UHGV virus genome: UHGV-0329897
DNA: 12,544 nt
DNA from: a virus
Strand: one strand, 5' to 3'
Positions within the stretch are counted from its first letter, which is position 1. Each line of letters begins with the position of its first letter. The translations under genes were made by a program, and so were the position numbers. A model generated the notes under the pieces. That model searched no databases. It saw only the letters and a list, made by a program, of their open reading frames with translations, and was not told the DNA's origin. Positions 2,087 to 12,544 of this stretch are shown here, piece after piece.

Positions 2087-2410
2087 CTAGGTAAGAGGAA
2101 TCGATTTTCCCTTAATTTTCTGGCGTCCACTGCATGTTATGCCGCGTTCGCCAGGCTTGCTGTACCATGTGCGCTGATTCTTGCGCTCAATACGTTGCAG
2201 GTTGCTTTCAATCTGTTCGTGGTATTCAGCCAGCACTGTAAGGTCTATCGGATTCAGTGCGCTTTCTACTCGTGATTTCGGTTTGCGATTCAGCGAGAGA
2301 ATAGGGCGGTTAACTGGTTTTGCGCTTACCCCAACCAACAGGGGATTTGCTGCTTTCCATTGAGCCTGTTTCTCTGCGCGACGTTCGCGGCGGCGTGTTT
2401 GTGCATCCAT
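2087..2410 (-). CDS. N: N transcription antitermination protein (107 aa)
   Basis: Internal ATG at 2410 of the track ORF gives MDAQTRRRERRAEKQAQWKAANPLLVGVSAKPVNRPILSLNRKPKSRVESALNPIDLTVLAEYH..., including the arginine-rich boxB-binding N-terminus. The upstream extension in the track is leader sequence. Confidence 0.9.
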   Translation of the reverse strand: MDAQTRRRERRAEKQAQWKAANPLLVGVSAKPVNRPILSLNRKPKSRVESALNPIDLTVLAEYHEQIESNLQRIERKNQRTWYSKPGERGITCSGRQKIKGKSIPLT

Positions 2411-2520
2411 CTGGATTCTCCTGTCAGTTAGCTTTGAGTAACGCGCCGTGATGCTTATCCCCACGGTTGCTGTCTTGCAGCTGCATTTCGCGCTACTCAA
2501 AGCTTTCTGCTTTGAATGCT

Positions 2521-2551
2521 GCCCTTCTTCAGGGCTAAATTTTTAAGAGCC
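2521..2551 (-). promoter_or_regulatory. nutL (boxA + boxB) in the N leader
   Basis: Minus strand reads GCTCTTAAAAATTTAGCCCTGAAGAAGGGC: a boxA-like GCTCTTA followed by the boxB hairpin GCCCTGAAGAAGGGC (plus-strand 2521-2535). Confidence 0.75.
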
Positions 2552-2584
2552 TCACCTTCAATGGTGGTTAGTGCGTCCTGCTGA

Positions 2585-2654
2585 CGAGCTAAGTATCACC
2601 GCTAGTGGTATTTGTGTCAACACCGCTAGAGATATTTTATCACCGCAAATGGTT
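2585..2654 (-). promoter_or_regulatory. pL promoter with operators oL1 (2594-2610), oL2 (2618-2634), oL3 (2638-2654)
   Basis: Three 17-bp lambda-type operator sites (tatcaccgctagtggta, caacaccgctagagata, tatcaccgcaaatggtt). On the minus strand the -35 TTGACA (2615-2620) and -10 GATACT (2592-2597) direct transcription towards N. Confidence 0.8.
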
Positions 2655-2809
2655 ATCTGTATGTTTTTTATATGGATTTATTTTTTCGAGTGAGTGTATT
2701 GCCTCGGCGATGTAAGGAGAGATCAGAATTGCGTTGTTTAGTGAGTTGTATCTATTTATTTTCCAATAAATACAATTGGTTATGTGTTTTTAGGTGGGGC
2801 GATCGTGAG

Positions 2810-2839
2810 GCAAAGAAAACCCGGCGCTGAGGCCGGGTT
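2810..2839 (-). terminator. Intrinsic terminator closing the cI-adjacent cargo operon (tIMM-like position)
   Basis: Perfect 8-bp stem aacccggc/gccgggtt (2818-2839) with a 6-nt loop, starting 3 nt after the stop of the 250-aa ORF and followed on the minus strand by TTTCTTTG. Confidence 0.6.
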
Positions 2840-2842
2840 GTA

Positions 2843-3595
2843 TTATGCTGCAAGTCTCTTAATCCAAGTCTCTCTTTTGGAGAATGGTAGAACTTGGCTT
2901 GATTCATGGAAGAGTAAGGAGAGTTGTTGCATTTGATCACCAATTGCTTCGCTGTCTATAACAACAAATCTGTTGTTATACTCCTCACTTGAAGCTTTAA
3001 GATCAATTAGTTTCCCAAGCAATGAGTAAGCACTATTCCAGCTTCCTCCGTGTTTCACGCTTGATGTAAAAACGTATTTAGGTATGTCGGTTTTTATTGT
3101 TACAGGGACGGTAATTTGATGTCCACTCAAGCCATATACGTTTTCACGAAGAGAAAGTGCCTCTCTAAGCTCTGTGTGATATAGATAATCAATAACCATA
3201 CTTTCAAACTTTTCAGCTTGAACTGGCTGATACCAGTCTAACGACAAAGTTGATGCGAGTATACCAGCTCTAATTATGTTCGATGTAATCGCACCGACAT
3301 CCTTTTCTGTTGCCCAAGCAATGATTTCTCCTCGAGCATTGAGTTCTGCGCCTTCTTTAAGCAGTAATTGTCGTATCTCATCAAGTCGTTTTTTGGTAAG
3401 CGAGATCCCTCTTGCCTCCATATTCATTAAGGCATCGCATCTGTCACTAACTAAATACCTACCATTGACTTCACGGATAAAGGCACCGACATGCTCTCCA
3501 TCATCACAGTAAGTGAATGGACTGATAATTCTCAAGGTCTTGCCTATTGGATGGCATTCGAAACCTAGTTGTGAGATCACTGTTGAGCACATCAT
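2843..3595 (-). CDS. Hypothetical protein (250 aa), distal gene of the cI-adjacent cargo operon; no family recognised
   Basis: Long minus-strand ORF starting ATG ATG at 3595/3592; its start overlaps the upstream gene's stop (ATGA). Immediately followed by a terminator. No obvious transmembrane segment or catalytic motif that I can name. Confidence 0.7.
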   Translation of the reverse strand: MMCSTVISQLGFECHPIGKTLRIISPFTYCDDGEHVGAFIREVNGRYLVSDRCDALMNMEARGISLTKKRLDEIRQLLLKEGAELNARGEIIAWATEKDVGAITSNIIRAGILASTLSLDWYQPVQAEKFESMVIDYLYHTELREALSLRENVYGLSGHQITVPVTIKTDIPKYVFTSSVKHGGSWNSAYSLLGKLIDLKASSEEYNNRFVVIDSEAIGDQMQQLSLLFHESSQVLPFSKRETWIKRLAA

Positions 3596-4149
3596 ATTCC
3601 AAACCCCATTTGCCCCGACTCATCTTCAAGCGGTAAAGGTATTCTCCCAGAGTAAGTTATGTTCAGATGTTTACAGAAGTAATTCCAATACCCTACCAGG
3701 TCATCTGGGTTTATGTCATCTTCGATTGGAAACGCTATTCTATCACTATAGTATCCAGCTTCTTCATAGTATACATGGTAATGAGCACCGTAAATGATAT
3801 CTTGGTACTTCGGATGATCGACCTTGTAACTATTCGTGTGTTTGTCAAAGTGATAGGTATCTACCGCGAAAACCCTCTTGTTATGATAGAAAGCAATAAT
3901 ATTTATTTTAGGGTAAGAAATCGGGTCATCAGGTTCTGAATCCTGATCTGGTTTCCATTTCAGTTCAAACTTTAGCCCTTGTATAGGTATACAATCCTCA
4001 TCCAAGGGGATGATATGAGCTTGTAGCCACATATCAGAGCGACTTGGTTTCTGTTTCCATTTAACGCCAGAAAAGTTAACTATTTTTTTACAATAAAGTA
4101 CTTTATCAACTTCTACTTGGCTTGGCTGATAATCATCTATTTTTGCCAA
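3592..4149 (-). CDS. Hypothetical acidic, aromatic-rich protein (185 aa), proximal gene of the cI-adjacent cargo operon; no family recognised
   Basis: Minus-strand ORF beginning 39 nt downstream of the cI stop. The codon at 4149-4147 is TTG (track prints M) preceded by AGGGCGG 7 nt upstream; the first in-frame ATG is codon 40. Contains acidic clusters (PDQDSEPDDP, EDDINPDD, LEDESGQ). Confidence 0.65.
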   Translation of the reverse strand: MAKIDDYQPSQVEVDKVLYCKKIVNFSGVKWKQKPSRSDMWLQAHIIPLDEDCIPIQGLKFELKWKPDQDSEPDDPISYPKINIIAFYHNKRVFAVDTYHFDKHTNSYKVDHPKYQDIIYGAHYHVYYEEAGYYSDRIAFPIEDDINPDDLVGYWNYFCKHLNITYSGRIPLPLEDESGQMGFGI

Positions 4150-4188
4150 TGTTTACCGCCCTGTAAATTGTAGATAAAAGTGGTTTCA

Positions 4189-4905
<717 letters not shown>

Positions 4906-4912
4906 TTAAATC

Positions 4913-4990
4913 TATCACCGCAAGGGATAAATATCTAACACCGTGCGTGTTGACTATTTTACCTCTAGCGGTGATAATAATTGCATGTAC
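4913..4990. promoter_or_regulatory. Right operator and divergent promoters: oR3 (4913-4929), oR2 (4936-4952), oR1 (4960-4976), pR (-35 TTGACT 4950-4955, -10 GATAAT 4973-4978), pRM on the opposite strand
   Basis: Three 17-bp operator sites (tatcaccgcaagggata, taacaccgtgcgtgttg, tacctctagcggtgata) between the cI and cro starts; strong SD AGGAGG before the cro ATG. Confidence 0.85.
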
Positions 4991-4993
4991 TAA

Positions 4994-5203
<210 letters not shown>

Positions 5204-5210
5204 ATAACAC

Positions 5211-5242
5211 CGCTCTTACACATCACAGCCCTGAAAAAGGGC
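5211..5242 (+). promoter_or_regulatory. nutR (boxA CGCTCTTACA 5211-5220; boxB GCCCTGAAAAAGGGC 5228-5242)
   Basis: Canonical boxA followed by the boxB hairpin, just downstream of cro. Confidence 0.8.
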
Positions 5243-5254
5243 ATCCAATTAAAC

Positions 5255-5286
5255 CACACCTATGGTGTATGCATTTATTTGCATAC
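5255..5286 (+). terminator. tR1 region (Rho-dependent terminator zone) with a 7-bp palindrome
   Basis: Position between nutR and cII; palindrome gtatgca/tgcatac at 5267-5286. A Rho-dependent site cannot be proven from sequence alone. Confidence 0.4.
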
Positions 5287-5299
5287 ATTCAATCAATTG

Positions 5300-5350
5300 T
5301 TATCTAAGGAAATACTTACATATGGTTCGTGCAAACAAACGCAACGAGGC
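5300..5350 (-). promoter_or_regulatory. pRE region with CII-binding direct repeat TTGC-N6-TTGC
   Basis: Minus strand reads TTGCGTTTGTTTGC (plus-strand 5331-5344) overlapping the cII start codon region, the lambda pRE -35 arrangement. Confidence 0.55.
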
Positions 5351-5615
5351 ACTACGAATCGAGAGTGCGTTGCTTAACAAAATCGCAATGCTTGGAACTG
5401 AGAAGACAGCGGAAGCTGTGGGAGTTGATAAGTCGCAGATCAGCAGGTGGAAGAGAGACTGGATTCCCAAGTTCTCAATGCTGCTTGCTGTTCTTGAATG
5501 GGGGGTCGTTGACGACGACATGGCTCGATTGGCGCGACAAGTTGCTGCGATTCTCACCAATAAAAAACGCCCGGCGGCAACCGAGCGTTCTGAACAAATT
5601 CAGATGGAGTTCTGA
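5322..5615 (+). CDS. cII: CII transcriptional activator (97 aa)
   Basis: ATG at 5322 gives MVRANKRNEALRIESALLNKIAMLGTEKTAEAVGVDKSQISRWKRDWIPKFSMLLAVLEWGVVDDDMARLARQVAAILTNKKRPAATERSEQIQMEF. The track ORF begins at an upstream alternative start. Confidence 0.95.
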   Translation: MVRANKRNEALRIESALLNKIAMLGTEKTAEAVGVDKSQISRWKRDWIPKFSMLLAVLEWGVVDDDMARLARQVAAILTNKKRPAATERSEQIQMEF

Positions 5616-5637
5616 GGTAATTACTGGATCTATCAAC
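5561..5637 (-). ncRNA. oop: oop antisense RNA (about 77 nt) with its t0 terminator
   Basis: Minus strand from 5637 reads GTTGATAGATCCAGTAATGACCTCAGAACTCCATCTGGATTTGTTCAGAACGCTCGGTTGCCGCCGGGCGTTTTTTAT, the sequence I know as lambda oop/t0: GC hairpin plus T6 tract, antisense to the cII 3' end. Confidence 0.75.
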
Positions 5638-5647
5638 AGGAGTCATT

Positions 5648-6547
5648 ATGACAAATACAGCAAAAATACTCAACTTCGGCAGAGGTAACTTTGCCGGACA
5701 GGAGCGTAATGTGGCAGATCTCGATGATGGTTACGCCAGACTATCAAATATGCTGCTTGAGGCTTATTCGGGCGCAGATCTGACCAAGCGACAGTTTAAA
5801 GTGCTGCTTGCCATTCTGCGTAAAACCTATGGGTGGAATAAACCAATGGACAGAATCACCGATTCTCAACTTAGCGAGATTACAAAGTTACCTGTCAAAC
5901 GGTGCAATGAAGCCAAGTTAGAACTCGTCAGAATGAATATTATCAAGCAGCAAGGCGGCATGTTTGGACCAAATAAAAACATCTCAGAATGGTGTATCCC
6001 TCAAAACGAGGGAAAATCCCCTAAAACGAGGGATAAAACATCCCTCAAATTGGGGGATTGCTATCCCTCAAAACAGGGGGACACAAAAGACACTATTACA
6101 AAAGAAAAAAGAAAAGATTATTCGTCCGAGAATTCTGGCGAATCCTCTGACCAGCCAGAAAACGACCTTTCTGTGGTGAAACCGGATGCTGCAATTCAGA
6201 GCGGCAGCAAGTGGGGGACAGCAGAAGACCTGACCGCCGCAGAGTGGATGTTTGACATGGTGAAGACCATCGCGCCATCAGCCAGAAAACCGAATTTTGC
6301 AGGGTGGGCTAACGATATCCGCCTGATGCGTGAACGTGACGGACGTAACCACCGCGACATGTGCGTGCTGTTCCGCTGGGCATGCCAGGACAACTTCTGG
6401 TCCGGTAACGTGCTTAGCCCGGCCAAACTCCGCGACAAGTGGACCCAGCTCGAAATCAACCGTAACAAGCAACAGGCAGTCGTGACAGCCAGCAAACCAA
6501 AACTCGACCTGACAAACACAGACTGGATTTACGGGGTGGATCTATGA
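5648..6547 (+). CDS. O: Replication initiator O (299 aa)
   Basis: Lambda-type O translation (MTNTAKILNFGRGNFAGQERNVADLDDGYARLSNMLLEAY...), with the origin iterons embedded in the coding sequence. Confidence 0.95.
   Translation: MTNTAKILNFGRGNFAGQERNVADLDDGYARLSNMLLEAYSGADLTKRQFKVLLAILRKTYGWNKPMDRITDSQLSEITKLPVKRCNEAKLELVRMNIIKQQGGMFGPNKNISEWCIPQNEGKSPKTRDKTSLKLGDCYPSKQGDTKDTITKEKRKDYSSENSGESSDQPENDLSVVKPDAAIQSGSKWGTAEDLTAAEWMFDMVKTIAPSARKPNFAGWANDIRLMRERDGRNHRDMCVLFRWACQDNFWSGNVLSPAKLRDKWTQLEINRNKQQAVVTASKPKLDLTNTDWIYGVDL
5996..6130. repeat. ori-lambda: four about 18-bp iterons (5997-6014, 6017-6033, 6041-6057, 6064-6081) followed by an AT-rich unwinding region
   Basis: Direct repeats tccctcaaaacgagggaaa / tcccctaaaacgaggga / tccctcaaattggggga / tccctcaaaacaggggga, then acaaaagaaaaaagaaaagattatt. 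Confidence 0.9.
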
Positions 6548-7245
6548 AAAACATCGCCGCACAGATGGTTAACTTTGACCGTGAGCAGATGCGCCGGATC
6601 GCCAACAACATGCCGGAACAGTACGACGAAAAGCCGCAGGTACAGCAGGTAGCGCAGATCATCAACGGTGTGTTCAGCCAGTTACTGGCAACTTTCCCGG
6701 CGAGCCTGGCTAACCGTGACCAGAACGAAGTGAACGAAATCCGTCGCCAGTGGGTTCTGGCTTTTCGGGAAAACGGGATCACCACGATGGAACAGGTTAA
6801 CGCAGGAATGCGCGTAGCCCGTCGGCAGAATCGACCATTTCTGCCATCACCCGGGCAGTTTGTTGCATGGTGCCTGGAAGAAGCATCCGTTATCGCCGGA
6901 CTGCCAAACGTCAGCGAGCTGGTTGATATGGTTTACGAGTATTGCCGGAAGCGAGGCCTGTATCCGGATGCGGAGTCTTATCCGTGGAAATCAAACGCGC
7001 ACTACTGGCTGGTTACCAACCTGTATCAGAACATGCGGGCCAATGCGCTTACTGATGCGGAATTACGGCGCAAGGCTGCCGATGAACTGACCTGTATGAC
7101 AGCGCGAATTAACCGTGGTGAGGCGATCCCTGAACCAGTAAAACAACTTCCTGTCATGGGCGGTAGACCTCTAAATCGTGCACAGGCTCTGGCGAAGATC
7201 GCAGAACTCAAAGCTAAGTTCGGACTGAAAGGAGCAAGTGTATGA
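6544..7245 (+). CDS. P: Replication protein P (DnaB helicase loader), 233 aa
   Basis: Lambda-type P translation (MKNIAAQMVNFDREQMRRIANNMPEQYDEKPQVQQVAQIINGVF...). Start overlaps the O stop (ATGA). Confidence 0.95.
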   Translation: MKNIAAQMVNFDREQMRRIANNMPEQYDEKPQVQQVAQIINGVFSQLLATFPASLANRDQNEVNEIRRQWVLAFRENGITTMEQVNAGMRVARRQNRPFLPSPGQFVAWCLEEASVIAGLPNVSELVDMVYEYCRKRGLYPDAESYPWKSNAHYWLVTNLYQNMRANALTDAELRRKAADELTCMTARINRGEAIPEPVKQLPVMGGRPLNRAQALAKIAELKAKFGLKGASV

Positions 7246-7532
7246 CGGGCAAAGAGGCAATTATTCATTACCTGGGGACGCATAATAGCTTCTGTGCGCC
7301 GGACGTTGCCGCGCTAACAGGCGCAACAGTAACCAGCATAAATCAGGCCGCGGCTAAAATGGCACGGGCAGGTCTTCTGGTTATCGAAGGTAAGGTCTGG
7401 CGAACGGTGTATTACCGGTTTGCTACCAAGGAAGAACGGGAAGGAAAGATGAGCACGAACCTGATTTTTAAGGAGTGTCGCCAGAGTGCCGCGATGAAAC
7501 GGGTATTGGCGGTATATGGAGTTAAAAGATGA
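7242..7532 (+). CDS. ren: Ren (96 aa)
   Basis: MTGKEAIIHYLGTHNSFCAPDVAALTGATVTSINQAAAKMARAGLLVIEGKVWRTVYYRF... in the lambda position after P; start overlaps the P stop. Confidence 0.9.
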   Translation: MTGKEAIIHYLGTHNSFCAPDVAALTGATVTSINQAAAKMARAGLLVIEGKVWRTVYYRFATKEEREGKMSTNLIFKECRQSAAMKRVLAVYGVKR

Positions 7533-7557
7533 CCATCTACATCACTGAGCTAATAAC

Positions 7558-7590
7558 AGGCCTGCTGGTAATCGCAGGCCTTTTTATTTG
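7558..7590 (+). terminator. tR2 intrinsic terminator
   Basis: Hairpin aggcctgc-tggtaatc-gcaggcct followed by TTTTTATTTGG, matching the lambda tR2 sequence as I recall it. Confidence 0.8.
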
Positions 7591-7605
7591 GGGGAGAGGG
7601 AAGTC

Positions 7606-8046
7606 ATGAAAAAACTAACCTTTGAAATTCGATCTCCAGCACATCAGCAGAACGCCATTCAAGCTATCCAGCAAATCCTTCCAGACCCAACCAAACCAAT
7701 CGTAGTAACCATTCAGGAACGCAACCGCAGCTTAGACCAGAATCGAAAGCTTTGGGCTTGCCTTGGTGACGTCTCTCGTCAGGTTGAATGGCATGGTCGC
7801 TGGCTGGATGCAGAAAGCTGGAAGTGCGTTTTTACAGCAGCATTAAAGCAGCAGGACGTTGTTCCTAACCTTGCCGGGAATGGCTTTGTGGTAATAGGCC
7901 AGTCAACCAGCAGGATGCGTGTAAGCGAATTTGCGGAGCTATTAGAGCTTATACAGGCATTCGGTACAGAGCGTGGCGTTAAGTGGTCAGACGAAGCGCG
8001 ACTAGCTCTCGAATGGAAAGCGCGATGGGGAGATCGGGCTGCATGA
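7606..8046 (+). CDS. ninB: NinB (Orf-family recombination mediator), 146 aa
   Basis: ATG at 7606 with SD GAGGGAAG gives MKKLTFEIRSPAHQQNAIQAIQQILPDPTKPIVVTIQERNRSLDQNRKLWACLGD... The track start at 7588 is a TTG. Confidence 0.9.
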   Translation: MKKLTFEIRSPAHQQNAIQAIQQILPDPTKPIVVTIQERNRSLDQNRKLWACLGDVSRQVEWHGRWLDAESWKCVFTAALKQQDVVPNLAGNGFVVIGQSTSRMRVSEFAELLELIQAFGTERGVKWSDEARLALEWKARWGDRAA

Positions 8047-8570
8047 CTATCAAATCAAATACGCCAGCACACGACAAGGACTGCTGGCAAACGCCGCTTT
8101 GGCTTTTTGATGCACTGGATATTGAGTTTGGATTCTGGCTGGATTCGGCAGCGAGCGACAAAAATGCTCTGTGCGCTCACTGGTTAACTGAGGCCGACGA
8201 CGCGCTAAATTCTGAGTGGATAAGCCACGGTGCAATCTGGAATAACCCACCGTACAGCAATATCAGGCCGTGGGTGGAAAAAGCCGCTGAGCAGTGCATA
8301 CAACAGCGACAGACGGTAGTGATGCTTGTGCCAGAGGATATGTCTGTCGGATGGTTCAGCAAGGCTCTGGAGAGTATTGACGAAGTTCGCATCATCACTG
8401 ATGGACGGATTAATTTTATCGAACCATCGACAGGGCTGGAGAAGAAGGGAAACAGCAAAGGTTCCATGCTGCTGATTTGGCGACCGTTCATCAGTCCTCG
8501 ACGGATGTTTACTACCGTATCCAAAGCGGCATTGATGGCGATCGGGCAGGGCGTCAGGAGGGCTGCATGA
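8043..8570 (+). CDS. Phage orphan DNA N6-adenine methyltransferase (phage T1 Dam-like family), 175 aa
   Basis: ATG at 8043 overlaps the ninB stop (ATGA). Contains the N-terminal DxxCWQTP motif and the NPPY catalytic motif (WNNPPYSN), occupying the slot where lambda has ninC. No adjacent restriction endonuclease gene. Confidence 0.8.
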
Positions 8571-8743
8571 GACGACAGCGGCGAAGTTTCACCGACATCA
8601 TCTGCGAAAACTGCAAATACCTTCCAACGAAACGCTCCAGAAATAAACGCAAGCCAATCCCAAAAGAATCTGACGTAAAAACCTTCAACTACACGGCTCA
8701 CCTGTGGGATATCCGGTGGCTAAGACATCGTGCGAGGAAATGA
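8567..8743 (+). CDS. ninE: NinE (58 aa)
   Basis: ATG at 8567 overlaps the methyltransferase stop; translation [58 protein letters not shown]. The track ORF starts at an upstream alternative codon. Confidence 0.8.
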
Positions 8744-9087
8744 CAATGGATTATTCACAGTTAAGTGATTTTGAAATTAACCGAATGGTAGGAGACATAA
8801 TTTTTAAAGGCCTTTGGGCATGTAAGCCTGAAACATCAGGGAATAACACCAACAAATGGTATTACGGAAATGCCGATGTAAGTCTTGAGCCATTAAACCC
8901 TTTGCCTGACTACTGCAATGATCCGAGCGCTTCATGGCCGATTATTGAGAAATACAGGATTTCTATCTTAGACCAGTTAACTGAATGGTGTGTGGATGCA
9001 AAAGGCGTAAGCCCAATATTTGATACCAGACCTCTCCGCGCCGCCATGATTGTCTTTCTCCTGATGCAGGAGGCCAATAATGCTTAG
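8740..9087 (+). CDS. Hypothetical nin-region protein (115 aa), function unknown
   Basis: ATG at 8740 overlaps the ninE stop (ATGA), with a second ATG at 8746 and GAGGAAA upstream. Translation [36 protein letters not shown]...; no motif I can assign. Confidence 0.6.
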
Positions 9088-9274
9088 CCCATCTCAATCC
9101 CTTCAATACCTGAAAGGAAGCATAGAGCGGGCTTCAATGTGCACAGAGTGGATTCTATCTAGGTTTAGCGCATACAGAAGATTGCCGGTAAAGGGCATGC
9201 CAAGCAAGTCGATGCTGCATATGCAAAAGAATGCGCGCTGGAAGGTATGGCGAGAACACAGGTTATCTGGCTGA
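9080..9274 (+). CDS. NinF-like N-terminus (about 18 codons) running out of frame into ybcO-like 3' sequence; likely a chimeric product
   Basis: Strong SD AGGAGG 7 nt before the ATG at 9080. The first residues [18 protein letters not shown] resemble NinF; the remainder is R/K/W/H-rich, as expected for wrong-frame translation of the ybcO-like remnant. Confidence 0.4.
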
Positions 9275-9297
9275 AAGAGGGGGTTATTAAGGCGTGA
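9169..9297 (+). pseudogene. 3' remnant of a ybcO-like gene (rusA-upstream gene) lacking a start codon
   Basis: This frame reads [42 protein letters not shown] and stops overlapping the rusA GTG start (GTGA), but has stops at 9160 and 9166 and no start codon. The C-terminus matches my recollection of DLP12 YbcO. Confidence 0.4.
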
Positions 9298-9656
9298 ATA
9301 CCTACAGCATCACATTACCCTGGCCTCCGAGCAATAATCGCTATTACCGCCATAATCGCGGGCGCACGCACGTCAGCGCAGAGGGGCAGGCATACCGCGA
9401 TAACGTCGCCCGAATCATTAAAAACGCAATGCTGGATATCGGCCTGGCTATGCCTGTGAAAATCCGCATTGAGTGCCACATGCCGGATCGCCGTCGCCGT
9501 GACCTGGATAATCTGCAAAAAGCCGCTTTTGACGCACTCACTAAAGCAGGTTTCTGGCTGGATGATGCTCAGGTCGTTGATTACCGCGTTGTGAAGATGC
9601 CTGTTACCAAAGGTGGGAGGCTGGAACTGACCATCACCGAAATGGGGAATGAATGA
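9294..9656 (+). CDS. rusA: RusA Holliday-junction resolvase (120 aa)
   Basis: GTG start at 9294; [120 protein letters not shown] matches RusA of prophage DLP12 as I recall it. Confidence 0.95.
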
Positions 9657-9793
9657 TGTTTGAGTTTAATATGGCAGAACTTCTTCGCCACCGCTGGGGG
9701 CGTCTGCGCTTATATCGTTTCCCCGGTTCTGTTTTGACCGATTACCGAATACTGAAGAATTACGCCAAAACCCTGACAGGAGCAGGAGTATGA
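9653..9793 (+). CDS. ylcG: YlcG-like small protein (46 aa)
   Basis: ATGATG at 9653 overlaps the rusA stop; hand translation [46 protein letters not shown], stop 9791-9793. Below the ORF-track size cutoff. Confidence 0.7.
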
Positions 9794-9878
9794 AGTCAGA
9801 GATAACAATCAACTAATACTGTTTTGTTGATTTTTGCTTGTAATTGGCGTTCTGGTCTGATTTTTGTGGAGTAAGTTG

Positions 9879-10262
9879 ATGCGTGATATTCAGATGGTTC
9901 TTGAGCGTTGGGGAGCGTGGGCGGCTAATAATCATGAAGATGTGACCTGGTCGTCCATTGCCGCCGGTTTTAAGGGATTAATTACTTCAAAAGTAAAATC
10001 TCGCCCGCAATGTTGTGACGATGACGCGATGATTATTTGCGGGTGCATGGCCCGTCTGAAAAAGAACAACAGCGATTTGCACGATTTATTAGTAGATTAT
10101 TATGTAGTCGGTATGACATTCATGTCACTGGCAGGTAAGCATTGCTGCTCTGATGGTTATATCGGGAAAAGGTTACAGAAGGCTGAGGGCATAATTGAAG
10201 GGATGTTAATGGCATTAGATATCCGGTTAGAGATGGATATCGTTGTTAATAACTCTAATTAA
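9879..10262 (+). CDS. quuD: Q-type late-gene antiterminator QuuD (127 aa)
   Basis: ATG at 9879 gives [71 protein letters not shown]..., matching DLP12 QuuD as I recall it. The track ORF starts at an upstream GTG. Confidence 0.85.
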
Positions 10263-10450
10263 TATGCCAATTGTTTACTAAAAATTATTAAAAATGGGGC
10301 GTTGCAACGCCCCCAAAAATAAAGGGTAATATATAACAGAAGGTTTATATAGTTAGAAGCAAGGTTGTGCTCCTAAAGGAAGTGGCTTGAGGGAGCCACT
10401 TATATGTTGGGGAGGCAAAGCCTCCCGCAACATATCTTTTAGTAATCAAA
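10263..10450. promoter_or_regulatory. Late regulatory region downstream of Q (expected PR'/qut) with convergent hairpin terminators
   Basis: Hairpins at 10296-10313 (ggggcgttg/caacgcccc, U-tract on the minus strand), 10380-10401 (aagtggct/agccactt) and 10402-10435 (about 15-bp bulged stem followed by CTTTT on the plus strand). They lie between the convergent quuD and nmpC stops. Exact PR' hexamers not assigned. Confidence 0.45.
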
Positions 10451-11533
10451 TTAGAACTGGTAAACCATACCTACAGCAACGATATCATCGGTAGCAACGC
10501 CAGATGCTTTCGTGAAATCGCTCTTATCAATCAGGTTGATTTTGTAATCAACAAAAGTGGACATATTTTTGTTGAAGTAATAGGTTGCACCTACATCAAT
10601 ATATTCAACCAGGTCCTGATCACCCCACGCACCCAAGTCTTTTCCTTTAGATTGCAGGTAAGCAACGGACGGACGCAGACCGAAGTCGAACTGATATTGT
10701 GCAACTACTTCGAAGTTTTGTGCTTTGTTGGCAATATGGTTATTACCAAAAACAGTCATGTTCTGGGTTTCAGAATAGGTGGTAGCCAGATAGATGTTGT
10801 TCGCATCATATTTCAGACCAGCTGCCCATACTTCAGCATTTTGACCAGATGCATTCAGGCTGTTGTTACCGTAGATAACCTGATTATTAGTGCGGTCAGA
10901 TTTAGCATAGGTTGCACCTACACCGAATCCTTCATACTCATAAGTAGTGGAGAAACCGAAACCATCACCATTAGCTTCAGTTACGTCAGTGCGGTCATTT
11001 TTACCCTGATACTGAGCAGCAAAGTTCAGACCATCAACCAGACCAAAGAAGTCGTTGTTACGATAAGTTGCAACACCAGTGGTGCGACCAGTCATGAACA
11101 CATCTGTTTGGGTCCAGGTATCGCCACCGAATTCTGGCAGAACGTCAGTCCACGCACCGATGTCGTATGCTACACCGTAGTTACGGCCGTAATCGATTGA
11201 GCCGTAGTCACCGAATTTCAGGCCTGCAAATGCAAGACGGGTTTTGTCTTTGGAGGAACCTTGAGATTCAGCGCGGTTGCCTTTGAATTCATATTCCCAC
11301 TGACCGAAACCAGTCAGTTGATCGTTGATTTGGGTTTCACCTTTGAAGCCAAGACGGGCATAAGTAGTATCACCATCATCTGCATCATTAGAGGAGAAGT
11401 AGTGCTTAGCATTAACTTTCCCGTACAGATCCAGCTTGTTACTGTCTTTATTATAAATTTCAGCTGCCTGAGCAGACATCGCCATCAGTACTGATGCAGC
11501 TACAGCAGAAATTGCCACTGTTAATTTTTTCAT
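10451..11533 (-). CDS. nmpC: Outer-membrane general porin, NmpC/OmpD-type (360-aa precursor)
   Basis: ATG at 11533 with SD AAGGG; signal peptide [23 protein letters not shown] then AEIYNKD...; C-terminal beta-barrel signature ending ...VAVGMVYQF. Uninterrupted reading frame. The track start at 11593 is an upstream alternative start. Confidence 0.9.
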
Positions 11534-11960
11534 CGTGAGCCCTTTTTTTGAACTATTATTAAAAAATGATGTCACTGCGCGATAAATATTCATCTAATCA
11601 ATGTGATTATTTCAAGATGTAAGTTTTGGTTTCTCATTTGATTTGTGAAGTAGATCTCTATTTTTATCTGAACTTTTTCTATCGAATCCTATTCATGGCT
11701 CTTGGCTGAATAAAAATAAATCTATTAGCCAATTTATATTAATGGCTGTTATTTATAAGTGCTCTATAATTTGAAGGTTCAATTTAAATCGGCTAAAAAT
11801 AACGCTGGAAATTATTTGTTGGTTATTTGTTGAGATTTTCTTATGTATTTGTAGTGGTGTTTTCAATACTCGGTAGCATTCTCGCAAATATCATTTAGTG
11901 GTTTACGTACGTAAAAAATTGGTTATGCTGTTAAGAGTGGTTACTTCGTCACACAGCTTA

Positions 11961-11985
11961 AACCCGCCACTGAGCGGGTTTTTTG
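11961..11985 (+). terminator. Orphan intrinsic terminator in the nmpC upstream region
   Basis: 7-bp stem aacccgc/gcgggtt with a 6-nt loop followed by T6 on the plus strand; no plus-strand ORF precedes it. Confidence 0.45.
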
Positions 11986-12106
11986 TACCTGTAAACTTGG
12001 TGCAGTACAGTAAACACGCTGGTGGTCGTGAATACTGACTTTTTATCTTGCTGGCTTTTTAGACAAGAGTTATTGGTATGTCATGTTAACCAGAAGGGAA
12101 AAAGAC

Positions 12107-12304
12107 ATGCTAAAACAGCAAGATATGACCGAAACCGCCAGAGTGGTGTTTAATGAATTGAGCGTCACCGAACCGGCGACTGTCGGGGAAATTGCGCAGA
12201 ATACTTACCTTTCACGTGAACGCTGCCAGTTAATACTGACTCAGCTTGTTATGGCGGGTCTGGCAGATTATCAGTTCGGTTGTTACAGACGCCTTCAGCC
12301 CTGA
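12107..12304 (+). CDS. Small putative winged-helix DNA-binding protein (65 aa; alternative start at 12083 gives 73 aa)
   Basis: ATG at 12107 preceded by AAGGGA at 7-nt spacing. The pattern ...ATVGEIAQNTYLSRERCQLILTQLVMAGLADY resembles wHTH regulators of the IclR/MarR/TrmB type. Stop is embedded in a terminator hairpin. Confidence 0.5.
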   Translation: MLKQQDMTETARVVFNELSVTEPATVGEIAQNTYLSRERCQLILTQLVMAGLADYQFGCYRRLQP

Positions 12305-12316
12305 AGGCTTTTTTAT
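12291..12316 (+). terminator. Intrinsic terminator after the small wHTH ORF
   Basis: Stem gccttca/tgaaggc with loop gccc, followed by TTTTTTATTT. Confidence 0.55.
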
Positions 12317-12454
12317 TTGTGGTAATGGGCGGCTGGTGGGTGTTAGCGGCACCTGCCAGCCATCTGCTCATGCGTTGGGGTCACAAGCAAACCTCAGGCC
12401 CATCTGCTTTGCGCAAAAGCAGAATGAGCCTATCAGAGACAGGCTTAATGATCC

Positions 12455-12544
12455 ATGCTTAATACTGTAAAAATATCCAGTTGTGAGTTAATCAACGCCG
12501 ACTGCCTGGAATTTATCCGGTCGTTACCCGAAAATTCTGTTGAC
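12455..12544 (+). CDS. 5' end (30 codons) of a DNA methyltransferase (N6-adenine/N4-cytosine class), truncated by the window edge
   Basis: ATG at 12455; MLNTVKISSCELINADCLEFIRSLPENSVD is the typical N-terminus of PF01555-type methyltransferases, which usually continues ...LIxTDPPY. The rest lies outside the window. Confidence 0.5.
   Translation, partial: MLNTVKISSCELINADCLEFIRSLPENSVD

Follow-up and report, generated by a model that had tools for sequence, protein, structure and literature searches.

An orphan M.EcoGII-type adenine methyltransferase gene with a conserved structured leader in a lambdoid prophage of Escherichia coli

At the right-hand edge of virus genome UHGV-0329897, a stretch of 12,544 nucleotides (nt; hereafter the window), a small open reading frame (ORF) of 65 amino acids precedes a DNA adenine methyltransferase gene represented by its first 30 codons, a layout that shares features with several described systems. 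Small DNA-binding proteins precede the restriction-modification (R-M) genes in the C-protein systems of Type II (C.PvuII, C.AhdI, C.Esp1396I); C-proteins are Xre/HTH_3 proteins which bind C-boxes and time the expression of the endonuclease. In lambdoid phages a promoter and terminator unit, pR'-tR', yields short transcripts (lambda 6S RNA; those of Stx phages and Gifsy such as IsrK), lies directly 3' of the antiterminator gene Q and, once Q modification has taken place, allows read-through. In phage Mu translation of mom needs the zinc-finger protein Com, whose ORF overlaps mom, and Mom itself is an acyl-type modifier and not an S-adenosylmethionine (SAM) methyltransferase. M.EcoGII, the closest described counterpart of the gene at the window edge, is sold as a reagent. 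This orphan enzyme (M.EcoGII/M.EcoGI) of 349 amino acids belongs to the beta class, is borne by a prophage of E. coli O104:H4 C227-11 and methylates adenine in any sequence context; it is not expressed in the lysogen, is toxic to the cell when artificially expressed or overexpressed, and phage 1720a-02 carries a close homologue (REBASE; Murray et al. 2018, PMC5778455). A review compares enzymes of this type with Mom, which likewise modifies DNA adenine late, stays silent in lysogens and is toxic when made early (PMC12707154).

The gene at the window edge is a copy of the already characterised M.EcoGII, a known and very common gene, and the locus is therefore an ordinary one and not a new defence system. 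Its best explanation, to which we assign a probability of roughly 80%, is an anti-restriction module that opens the late operon of a lambdoid E. coli prophage, Stx-phage-like but without stx; in this module a pR'/tR' region (about 11902-11987), a small-ORF cassette (12044-12320), a structured leader and the M.EcoGII-type gene follow one another. In the literature on M.EcoGII that was searched we found no mention of the upstream small ORF, the structured leader or the placement in the late operon.

An orphan methyltransferase gene ahead of the lysis genes

The methyltransferase ORF starts with the ATG at 12455 on the + strand and is cut by the window end at 12544. The window carries residues 1-30 only (MLNTVKISSCELINADCLEFIRSLPENSVD), which are identical to the first 30 residues of M.EcoGII and stop 4 residues short of the DPPY motif. 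An exact-protein look-up with the 65-amino-acid product returned E. coli chromosomes and among them L004 (GCA_900450395.1), which is 99.99% identical to window positions 2107-12544 (L004 position + 2106 = window position) and therefore serves as the missing extension beyond the right end. There the gene is full length (L004 10349-11398, 349 amino acids) and encodes TDPPYF at residues 34-39 (DPPY at 35-38), a target-recognition domain and FFMGSGST at 309-316, with the FxGxG motif. This order, from the N-terminal DPPY to the C-terminal FxGxG, is that of beta-class N6-adenine DNA methyltransferases, and the nearest solved structures are enzymes of that class such as RsrI, CcrM and MboIIA. PF01555 matches the full-length protein with 152.7 bits against a cut-off of 26.7 (E 1.9e-44). 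The original prediction, made from the window, had thus named the right family, a PF01555-type N6A/N4C methyltransferase cut by the window end 138 nt after a terminator. It had also pointed to the sequence further right as the place for DPPY, a target-recognition domain and an adjacent endonuclease or other defence gene; the ORF does run on through both of the former, and the latter is absent.

For the comparison with the printed M.EcoGII sequence (EGT69837.1) a machine-read copy from Table S1 of PMC11551740 was used, and against this copy at least 344 of the 349 positions of the L004 protein are identical. Four of the at most five differences are evident transcription errors of the copy, since the HH-for-HI and RRR-for-RR differences recur in other rows of the same table; Q243K alone may be real. 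Nothing substantive differs between the two enzymes, which share length, the DPPY, target-recognition and FxGxG arrangement, carriage by a prophage and orphan status, and phage 1720a-02 is also the top phage match to the window. By its identity to M.EcoGII the window enzyme would be non-specific for adenine. An additional discrete, non-Dam methylation motif in the host, as had been anticipated, does not agree with the properties of the twin enzyme, which acts on adenine whatever the surrounding sequence and stays silent in the lysogen (PMC5778455). The prophage does carry a second modification gene, another point that had been foreseen: the M.EcoGII-type gene is accompanied by a Dam-type adenine methyltransferase gene (PF05869) at 8043-8570, in the nin region of the window.

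The window is a lambdoid prophage, in which cI, cro, cII, O, P, ninB, rusA and ylcG are present. Just past its end, L004 11448-11966 contains three tRNAs (Met-CAT, Arg-TCG, Arg-TCT) and a full-length match to the small RNA STnc100 (139 bits), and these are followed by a nanS-p-like (esterase) gene of 617 amino acids, holin, DUF1327, endolysin, Rz and then terminase. This is the layout of a Stx-phage late region from which stx itself is absent; in phiP27 the corresponding gene pair (L23, L24) precedes tRNAs and stx2e. The comparison of gene order covered loci L001-L010, 12 diverged loci in genomes of Escherichia albertii, Kluyvera, Salmonella, Citrobacter, Pseudocitrobacter, Buttiauxella, Klebsiella, Scandinavium and Phytobacter, and 80 viral contigs centred on the methyltransferase. 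The order common to about ten genera is Q, of three unrelated types, optional cargo, terminator, the small ORF where present, methyltransferase, optional tRNAs, stx or nanS-p, holin, endolysin and Rz, and the relatives of other genera have their holin within about 80-220 nt 3' of the methyltransferase. Furthermore, of 5426 complete E. coli genomes 2781 match the DNA of the module, and a single genome may hold as many as 8 copies.

In L004 the stretch from the methyltransferase to the lysis genes has no ORF of endonuclease size, no other defence gene follows the methyltransferase in this downstream region, and no endonuclease was found at any of the about 100 related loci. With no endonuclease, and with a place between the Q antiterminator/terminator region and the holin, the methyltransferase is therefore an orphan gene of the late operon, which most likely protects progeny phage DNA from restriction and is not R-M or defence cargo. 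The window edge had originally been read as the left border of an R-M or defence module in which a small controller protein regulates the methyltransferase and an endonuclease. C-protein systems do have a small DNA-binding-type gene ahead of the modification gene, as this locus has, and PADLOC places the methyltransferase under its generic 'MTase_II' models. However, an adjacent cognate endonuclease is lacking throughout, and what lies downstream are tRNAs, STnc100, an esterase-like gene and lysis genes. The 65-amino-acid protein is not a C-protein, because it has no HTH_3 domain (no match with Pfam, its winged-helix matches being weak) and no endonuclease to control. In PADLOC it gave a single marginal match (SWIM_XIII, E 0.0034). 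Unlike C-protein systems, the locus shows no palindromic C-box-like operator upstream of the small-ORF start, where inverted repeats only pair the 5' region with the start and early codons of the ORF itself. The small ORF is, moreover, missing from 29 of 75 methyltransferase loci, and M.EcoGII, the characterised twin, is an orphan enzyme that lacks sequence specificity (PMC5778455). Hence the reading as R-M or defence module was rejected; it is already largely refuted and we regard it as extremely improbable.

The structured leader of the methyltransferase mRNA

The 137 nt in front of the methyltransferase (12318-12454, + strand, up to -1 of the AUG) form a structured mRNA leader and probably a cis-regulatory one, governing a toxic enzyme. 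The methyltransferase ATG lies 150 nt from the stop codon of the small ORF and 138 nt from the end of its terminator, and the spacing between the two ORFs is constant among relatives (147-152 nt). The leader core retains 75-85% identity between genera at a steady length of 127-130 nt (129 nt) and is better conserved than the flanking ORFs, which share 66-77% of their nucleotides between genera and are saturated at four-fold sites. Helix P1 (12325-12371, +) consists of a lower stem, AUGGGC/GCUCAU, and an upper hairpin of 13 base pairs (bp), whose 5' arm includes a Chi sequence at 12332-12339. Helix P2 (12378-12454, +) has the closing stem GGGUCA-c-AAGC / GCUU-aa-UGAUCC and a long inner hairpin with the apex CUGCUUU/AAAGCAG. 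Conserved single-stranded motifs are GUGRAAAUGGGCG, GCGAACCAAGGCCCA and GAGCCUAUCA, and the predicted fold of the window leader has -64.4 kcal/mol (z -4.1). P2 reaches -1 of the AUG with the end of its 3' arm, UGAUCC in the window and UGAUCU in most relatives, and a Shine-Dalgarno-like motif at -16 to -4 is lacking in 53 of the 61 distinct leaders. A GATC (Dam site) at 12450-12453, just 5' of the ATG, belongs to the P2 closing helix and is invariant in 37 aligned full-length leaders.

RNAalifold detected almost no covariation among 15 close sequences, and more distant methyltransferase loci were therefore collected, with the SUPREM ancestral sequence as bait. In this wider set P1 persists through the exchange of both arms for unrelated, mutually complementary sequences (GCGTACATGATG/CATCGTGCACGC, GCAGAAGAGTG/CACTACTTCTGC, ACTGTAAAAGTG/CACTCATACAGT), and the apex of P2 (P2b) varies from AGCGCT to TGTGCACA, TACGCGTA or AACGTT and is always palindromic. 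A covariance model (R1; 148 positions, 38 pairs) gave 91 matches in 98 sources, one per locus, on the + strand and abutting the ATG, the window scoring 128 bits. The alignment fitted to the model has 93.9% of its cells paired and double changes at 16 of the 38 pairs; compensatory cells number 113, compared with 26 ± 4 in shuffled alignments, none of 500 reaching the observed value, and 20-47 in slid controls. Independently of any alignment, all 42 distinct P1-upper segments, which comprise at least five unrelated arm sequences, form hairpins of 8-13 bp (z -2.3 to -6.5). The pairs are frequently G-U, and the structure is therefore specific to the + (sense) strand.

The same element could in principle act as DNA, either as a Chi recombination hotspot or as a protein-binding palindrome. 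The Chi sequence GCTGGTGG occurs twice in the 12.5-kilobase window (0.4 expected), both times on the + strand and inside the module, 314 nt apart; the copy at 12018-12025 is kept only in close relatives and the second, in the 5' arm of P1, is invariant in the enterobacterial clade. Four viral contigs that lack the methyltransferase (L028, L037, L039, L090) have a rearrangement junction directly after this second Chi, and the palindromic nature of the P2b apex also fits a role as DNA. Other clades, however, replace the Chi arm by unrelated sequences with compensating 3' arms, and the palindrome changes its sequence while its symmetry stays, which agrees better with a structure than with a fixed recognition site. 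In addition, read on the opposite strand the many G-U pairs would turn into A-C mismatches, and the element is always sense-oriented and abuts the ATG. An action as DNA is thus very unlikely.

Further readings of the intergenic region were discarded. It does not code for protein (ORFs of 60 and 74 amino acids included), as there are indels and no frame is open in all sequences. A scan found no sigma-70 promoter for the methyltransferase within it, and a hand-found TTGCGC, 16-nt spacer and TATCAG is poor and not conserved as a -10 element. No Rfam 15 family was found for 12318-12454: the leader in L004 had no match at E up to 1, and the sole overlapping match to the window at E up to 10 was the minus-strand Evf-2 long non-coding RNA (E 8.5; 14.1 bits, where the gathering score is 40).

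The element, the only potentially new item of the locus, is present in roughly half of the complete E. coli genomes, where it would have gone unnoticed. We see an even chance that it represents an undescribed class of cis-regulatory RNA and acts as a gate on translation of the methyltransferase, an enzyme that is promiscuous for adenine in DNA/RNA and self-toxic. As possible triggers a phage late factor, the adjacent winged-helix protein and a metabolite (SAM or S-adenosylhomocysteine, for instance) come into question. One clade of M.EcoGII relatives on viral contigs (L117, L119, L123-L126, L131; about 65% identity) has a leader of reduced length, with a model score of only 25-29 bits, which keeps P1 with GCTGGTG and lacks most of P2; the small ORF of this clade is diverged as well (about 39-48% identity).

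The small upstream gene

The small ORF (12107-12304, +; ATG at 12107, stop codon at 12302-12304) is a real gene beyond chance. As the original prediction had it, a Shine-Dalgarno-like run (AAGGG, 8 nt 5' of the ATG) precedes the ORF and an intrinsic terminator of its own closes it (12291-12320, +): a hairpin of GCCTTCAG/CTGAAGGC at 12291-12308 over the stop codon and then the U-run TTTTTTATTT. The arms of this hairpin covary across genera. The exact protein belongs to a cluster with 1,869 members and matches PHROG 331 (function unknown) at E 8e-38; across genera its amino-acid identity is 75-87%, while its four-fold degenerate sites are saturated (2-10 of 21-23 identical). A longer version of 73 amino acids, from the in-frame ATG at 12083, was rejected, since relatives keep only the start of the 65-amino-acid version. 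The ribosome-binding site and start codon lie inside a conserved predicted hairpin (12044-12125, +; z -3.3) in which UAUCUUGCUG pairs with codons 4-6 and GUAUGUC with GACAUGC, the latter holding the start codon. The fold is also predicted in L001, L002, L010 and L093-L099; the relatives that show it come from E. coli, Kluyvera, Salmonella, Citrobacter and Klebsiella.

The predicted winged-helix-like character of the protein is borne out at the level of the fold, with the order H1-b1-H2-H3-wing and with SelB and Z-alpha domains among the fold matches. At the level of families, no winged-helix model of Pfam or NCBIfam exceeded its curated cut-off. The best Pfam match was TrmB (E 0.002; 18.3 bits, cut-off 25.6), MarR_2, DprA_WH, HTH_24, Rrf2 and Crp were likewise below threshold, and NCBIfam Lrs14 gave 12 bits against a cut-off of 90; the RefSeq name 'TrmB family transcriptional regulator' rests on evidence of this sub-threshold type. 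The family is narrow: among 1.84 billion proteins there were 62 cluster representatives, all from the narrow family or fragments, and no distant relatives beyond it. Diverged homologues (39-68% identity) retain the motif RCQL(I/L)LTQ(L/F)xxAGL, probably the recognition helix.

In the searches run, the family was seen at no other type of locus, and a methyltransferase starts 147-152 nt 3' of the small ORF in 91 of the 97 sampled loci with room downstream, the six exceptions being deletions or rearrangements. This linkage would suit a Com-like activator or repressor which binds the leader, as RNA or DNA, and switches translation of the methyltransferase. Both here and in Mu a small ORF lies upstream and the start region is buried in RNA structure, in the present case inside a helix without a Shine-Dalgarno sequence; winged-helix domains can bind RNA, SelB and Z-alpha being cases in point; and Mom and M.EcoGII are both toxic and silent in lysogens (PMC12707154). 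Nevertheless, the 29 loci without the ORF have nearly identical leaders and methyltransferases; there the leader directly adjoins a tR'-like terminator, which occupies the position of the small-ORF terminator, and no homologue of the ORF occurs within 2.5 kilobases. The small ORF is therefore a linked accessory cassette and not an obligatory controller, the role in which it had originally been cast. Unlike Com, its product is winged-helix-like, is encoded 150 nt upstream without overlapping the methyltransferase translationally, can be dispensed with in many relatives and has no Com-type zinc-finger motif, only C40 and C59 being conserved among the cysteines of the family and no CxxC pair being present. 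Moreover, no operator-like sequence conserved only in ORF-bearing loci was identified. Of the features of a Com-type translational activator, occlusion of the start is only partly supported, and we consider a Com-like switch unlikely.

Alternatively, the cassette might be an independent 'moron' with its own promoter active in the lysogen, regulating host or prophage genes unrelated to the methyltransferase. It does lie between terminators, is present or absent as a unit, and has a conserved 5' region with TTGCTG, a 17-nt spacer and TATTGG or TATCTG. These hexamers are, however, poor, the -10 lacks the key final T and the scan returned no promoter; the start codon is sequestered in the hairpin, and the family was found only beside the leader and the methyltransferase. 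We hold this alternative to be quite unlikely. No homology was found between the 65-amino-acid protein and lambda orf-64, which has the equivalent position. The small protein would best be seen as a linked, dispensable nucleic-acid-binding accessory, a description that we rank above more specific roles; conceivable among the latter are binding to the leader, binding to DNA at other sites, or coping with the consequences of heavy N6-methyladenine.

Late transcription and the proposed role of the module

Upstream of the cassette, a candidate pR'-like late promoter was read from the sequence at 11902-11929 (+): TTTACG, a 16-nt spacer and TATGCT, followed by the conserved block GTTAAGAGTGGTTACTT. 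It agrees with 8 of 12 consensus positions, and for this reason the promoter scan did not list it; tentatively, it may serve the PF06530-type Q encoded at 9879-10262. Homology to phages with related Q genes but other inserted cargo begins at 11924-11928. A tR'-like intrinsic terminator follows at 11960-11987 (+; AAACCCGC-cactga-GCGGGTTT and a T-run), an inverted repeat with a fold of -13.7 kcal/mol that has a counterpart in all relatives, where it stands 3' of Q genes of three different types. In relatives whose Q is of the lambda type, TAAATT...TAACGATGGG lies just upstream of the shared module, with the pause element AACGATGGG, and comparison with the lambda sequence identified these as the pR' -10 and pause element of lambda. 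We infer that 11902-11987 is a pR'/tR' unit which was moved away from Q by insertion of a porin gene. This nmpC/ompC-like gene and its promoter region (10263-11930, reverse) lie between Q and the presumed late promoter/terminator unit. In contrast to the pR'-tR' units of other lambdoid phages, the one in the window is therefore parted from Q, and it leads into the methyltransferase module and not straight into the lysis genes. At the position of the porin other relatives carry a GIY-YIG nuclease gene (phiP27) or a DUF6731 gene (L008, L009), and the site looks like a recurrent insertion point for cargo that leaves late transcription intact. In the region of the presumed short pR'-tR' transcript two Rfam matches stay below threshold, an isrK-like one (11907-11984, +, 15.7 bits) and STnc130 (11952-12088, -, 29 bits, where the gathering score is 55).

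For the anti-restriction module we propose the following course of events. In the lysogen, transcripts would halt at the terminators and the methyltransferase would not be made. After induction, Q-modified RNA polymerase would pass both terminators, and the methyltransferase would be co-produced with the tRNAs and lysis genes and would modify adenines of the replicating phage DNA without sequence specificity. Such methylation may, as a proposal, protect the progeny from adenine-sensitive restriction in the next host. The folded leader, in which the 3' helix arm covers the ribosome-binding region up to the AUG, would most likely limit or time the translation of the methyltransferase.

Several points weigh against this explanation. 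The identity to M.EcoGII depends on a machine-read supplementary table, and the pR' for the PF06530-type Q is a reading of 8 matching consensus positions out of 12. As for the leader, the covariation statistics come from an alignment fitted to the model, and P2 has fewer compensatory pairs (4/9, 2/7, 1/5), P1 being strongly supported. The predicted occlusion of the start region is also modest, with an unpaired probability of 0.33 for -13 to +3 against 0.44 with shuffled upstream sequence. Finally, the benefit of M.EcoGII-type enzymes against restriction in vivo is itself a published proposal (PMC5778455, PMC12707154).

By this analysis, M.EcoGII-type genes would be the first long gene of a Q-dependent late operon in many enterobacterial lambdoid prophages. 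This placement offers a concrete explanation for the published silence of the enzyme in lysogens, which antitermination by Q through two terminators would account for. If the leader indeed controls translation, it would explain how the phage handles an enzyme that damages the cell, and it could then matter for the heterologous expression or engineering of M.EcoGII.

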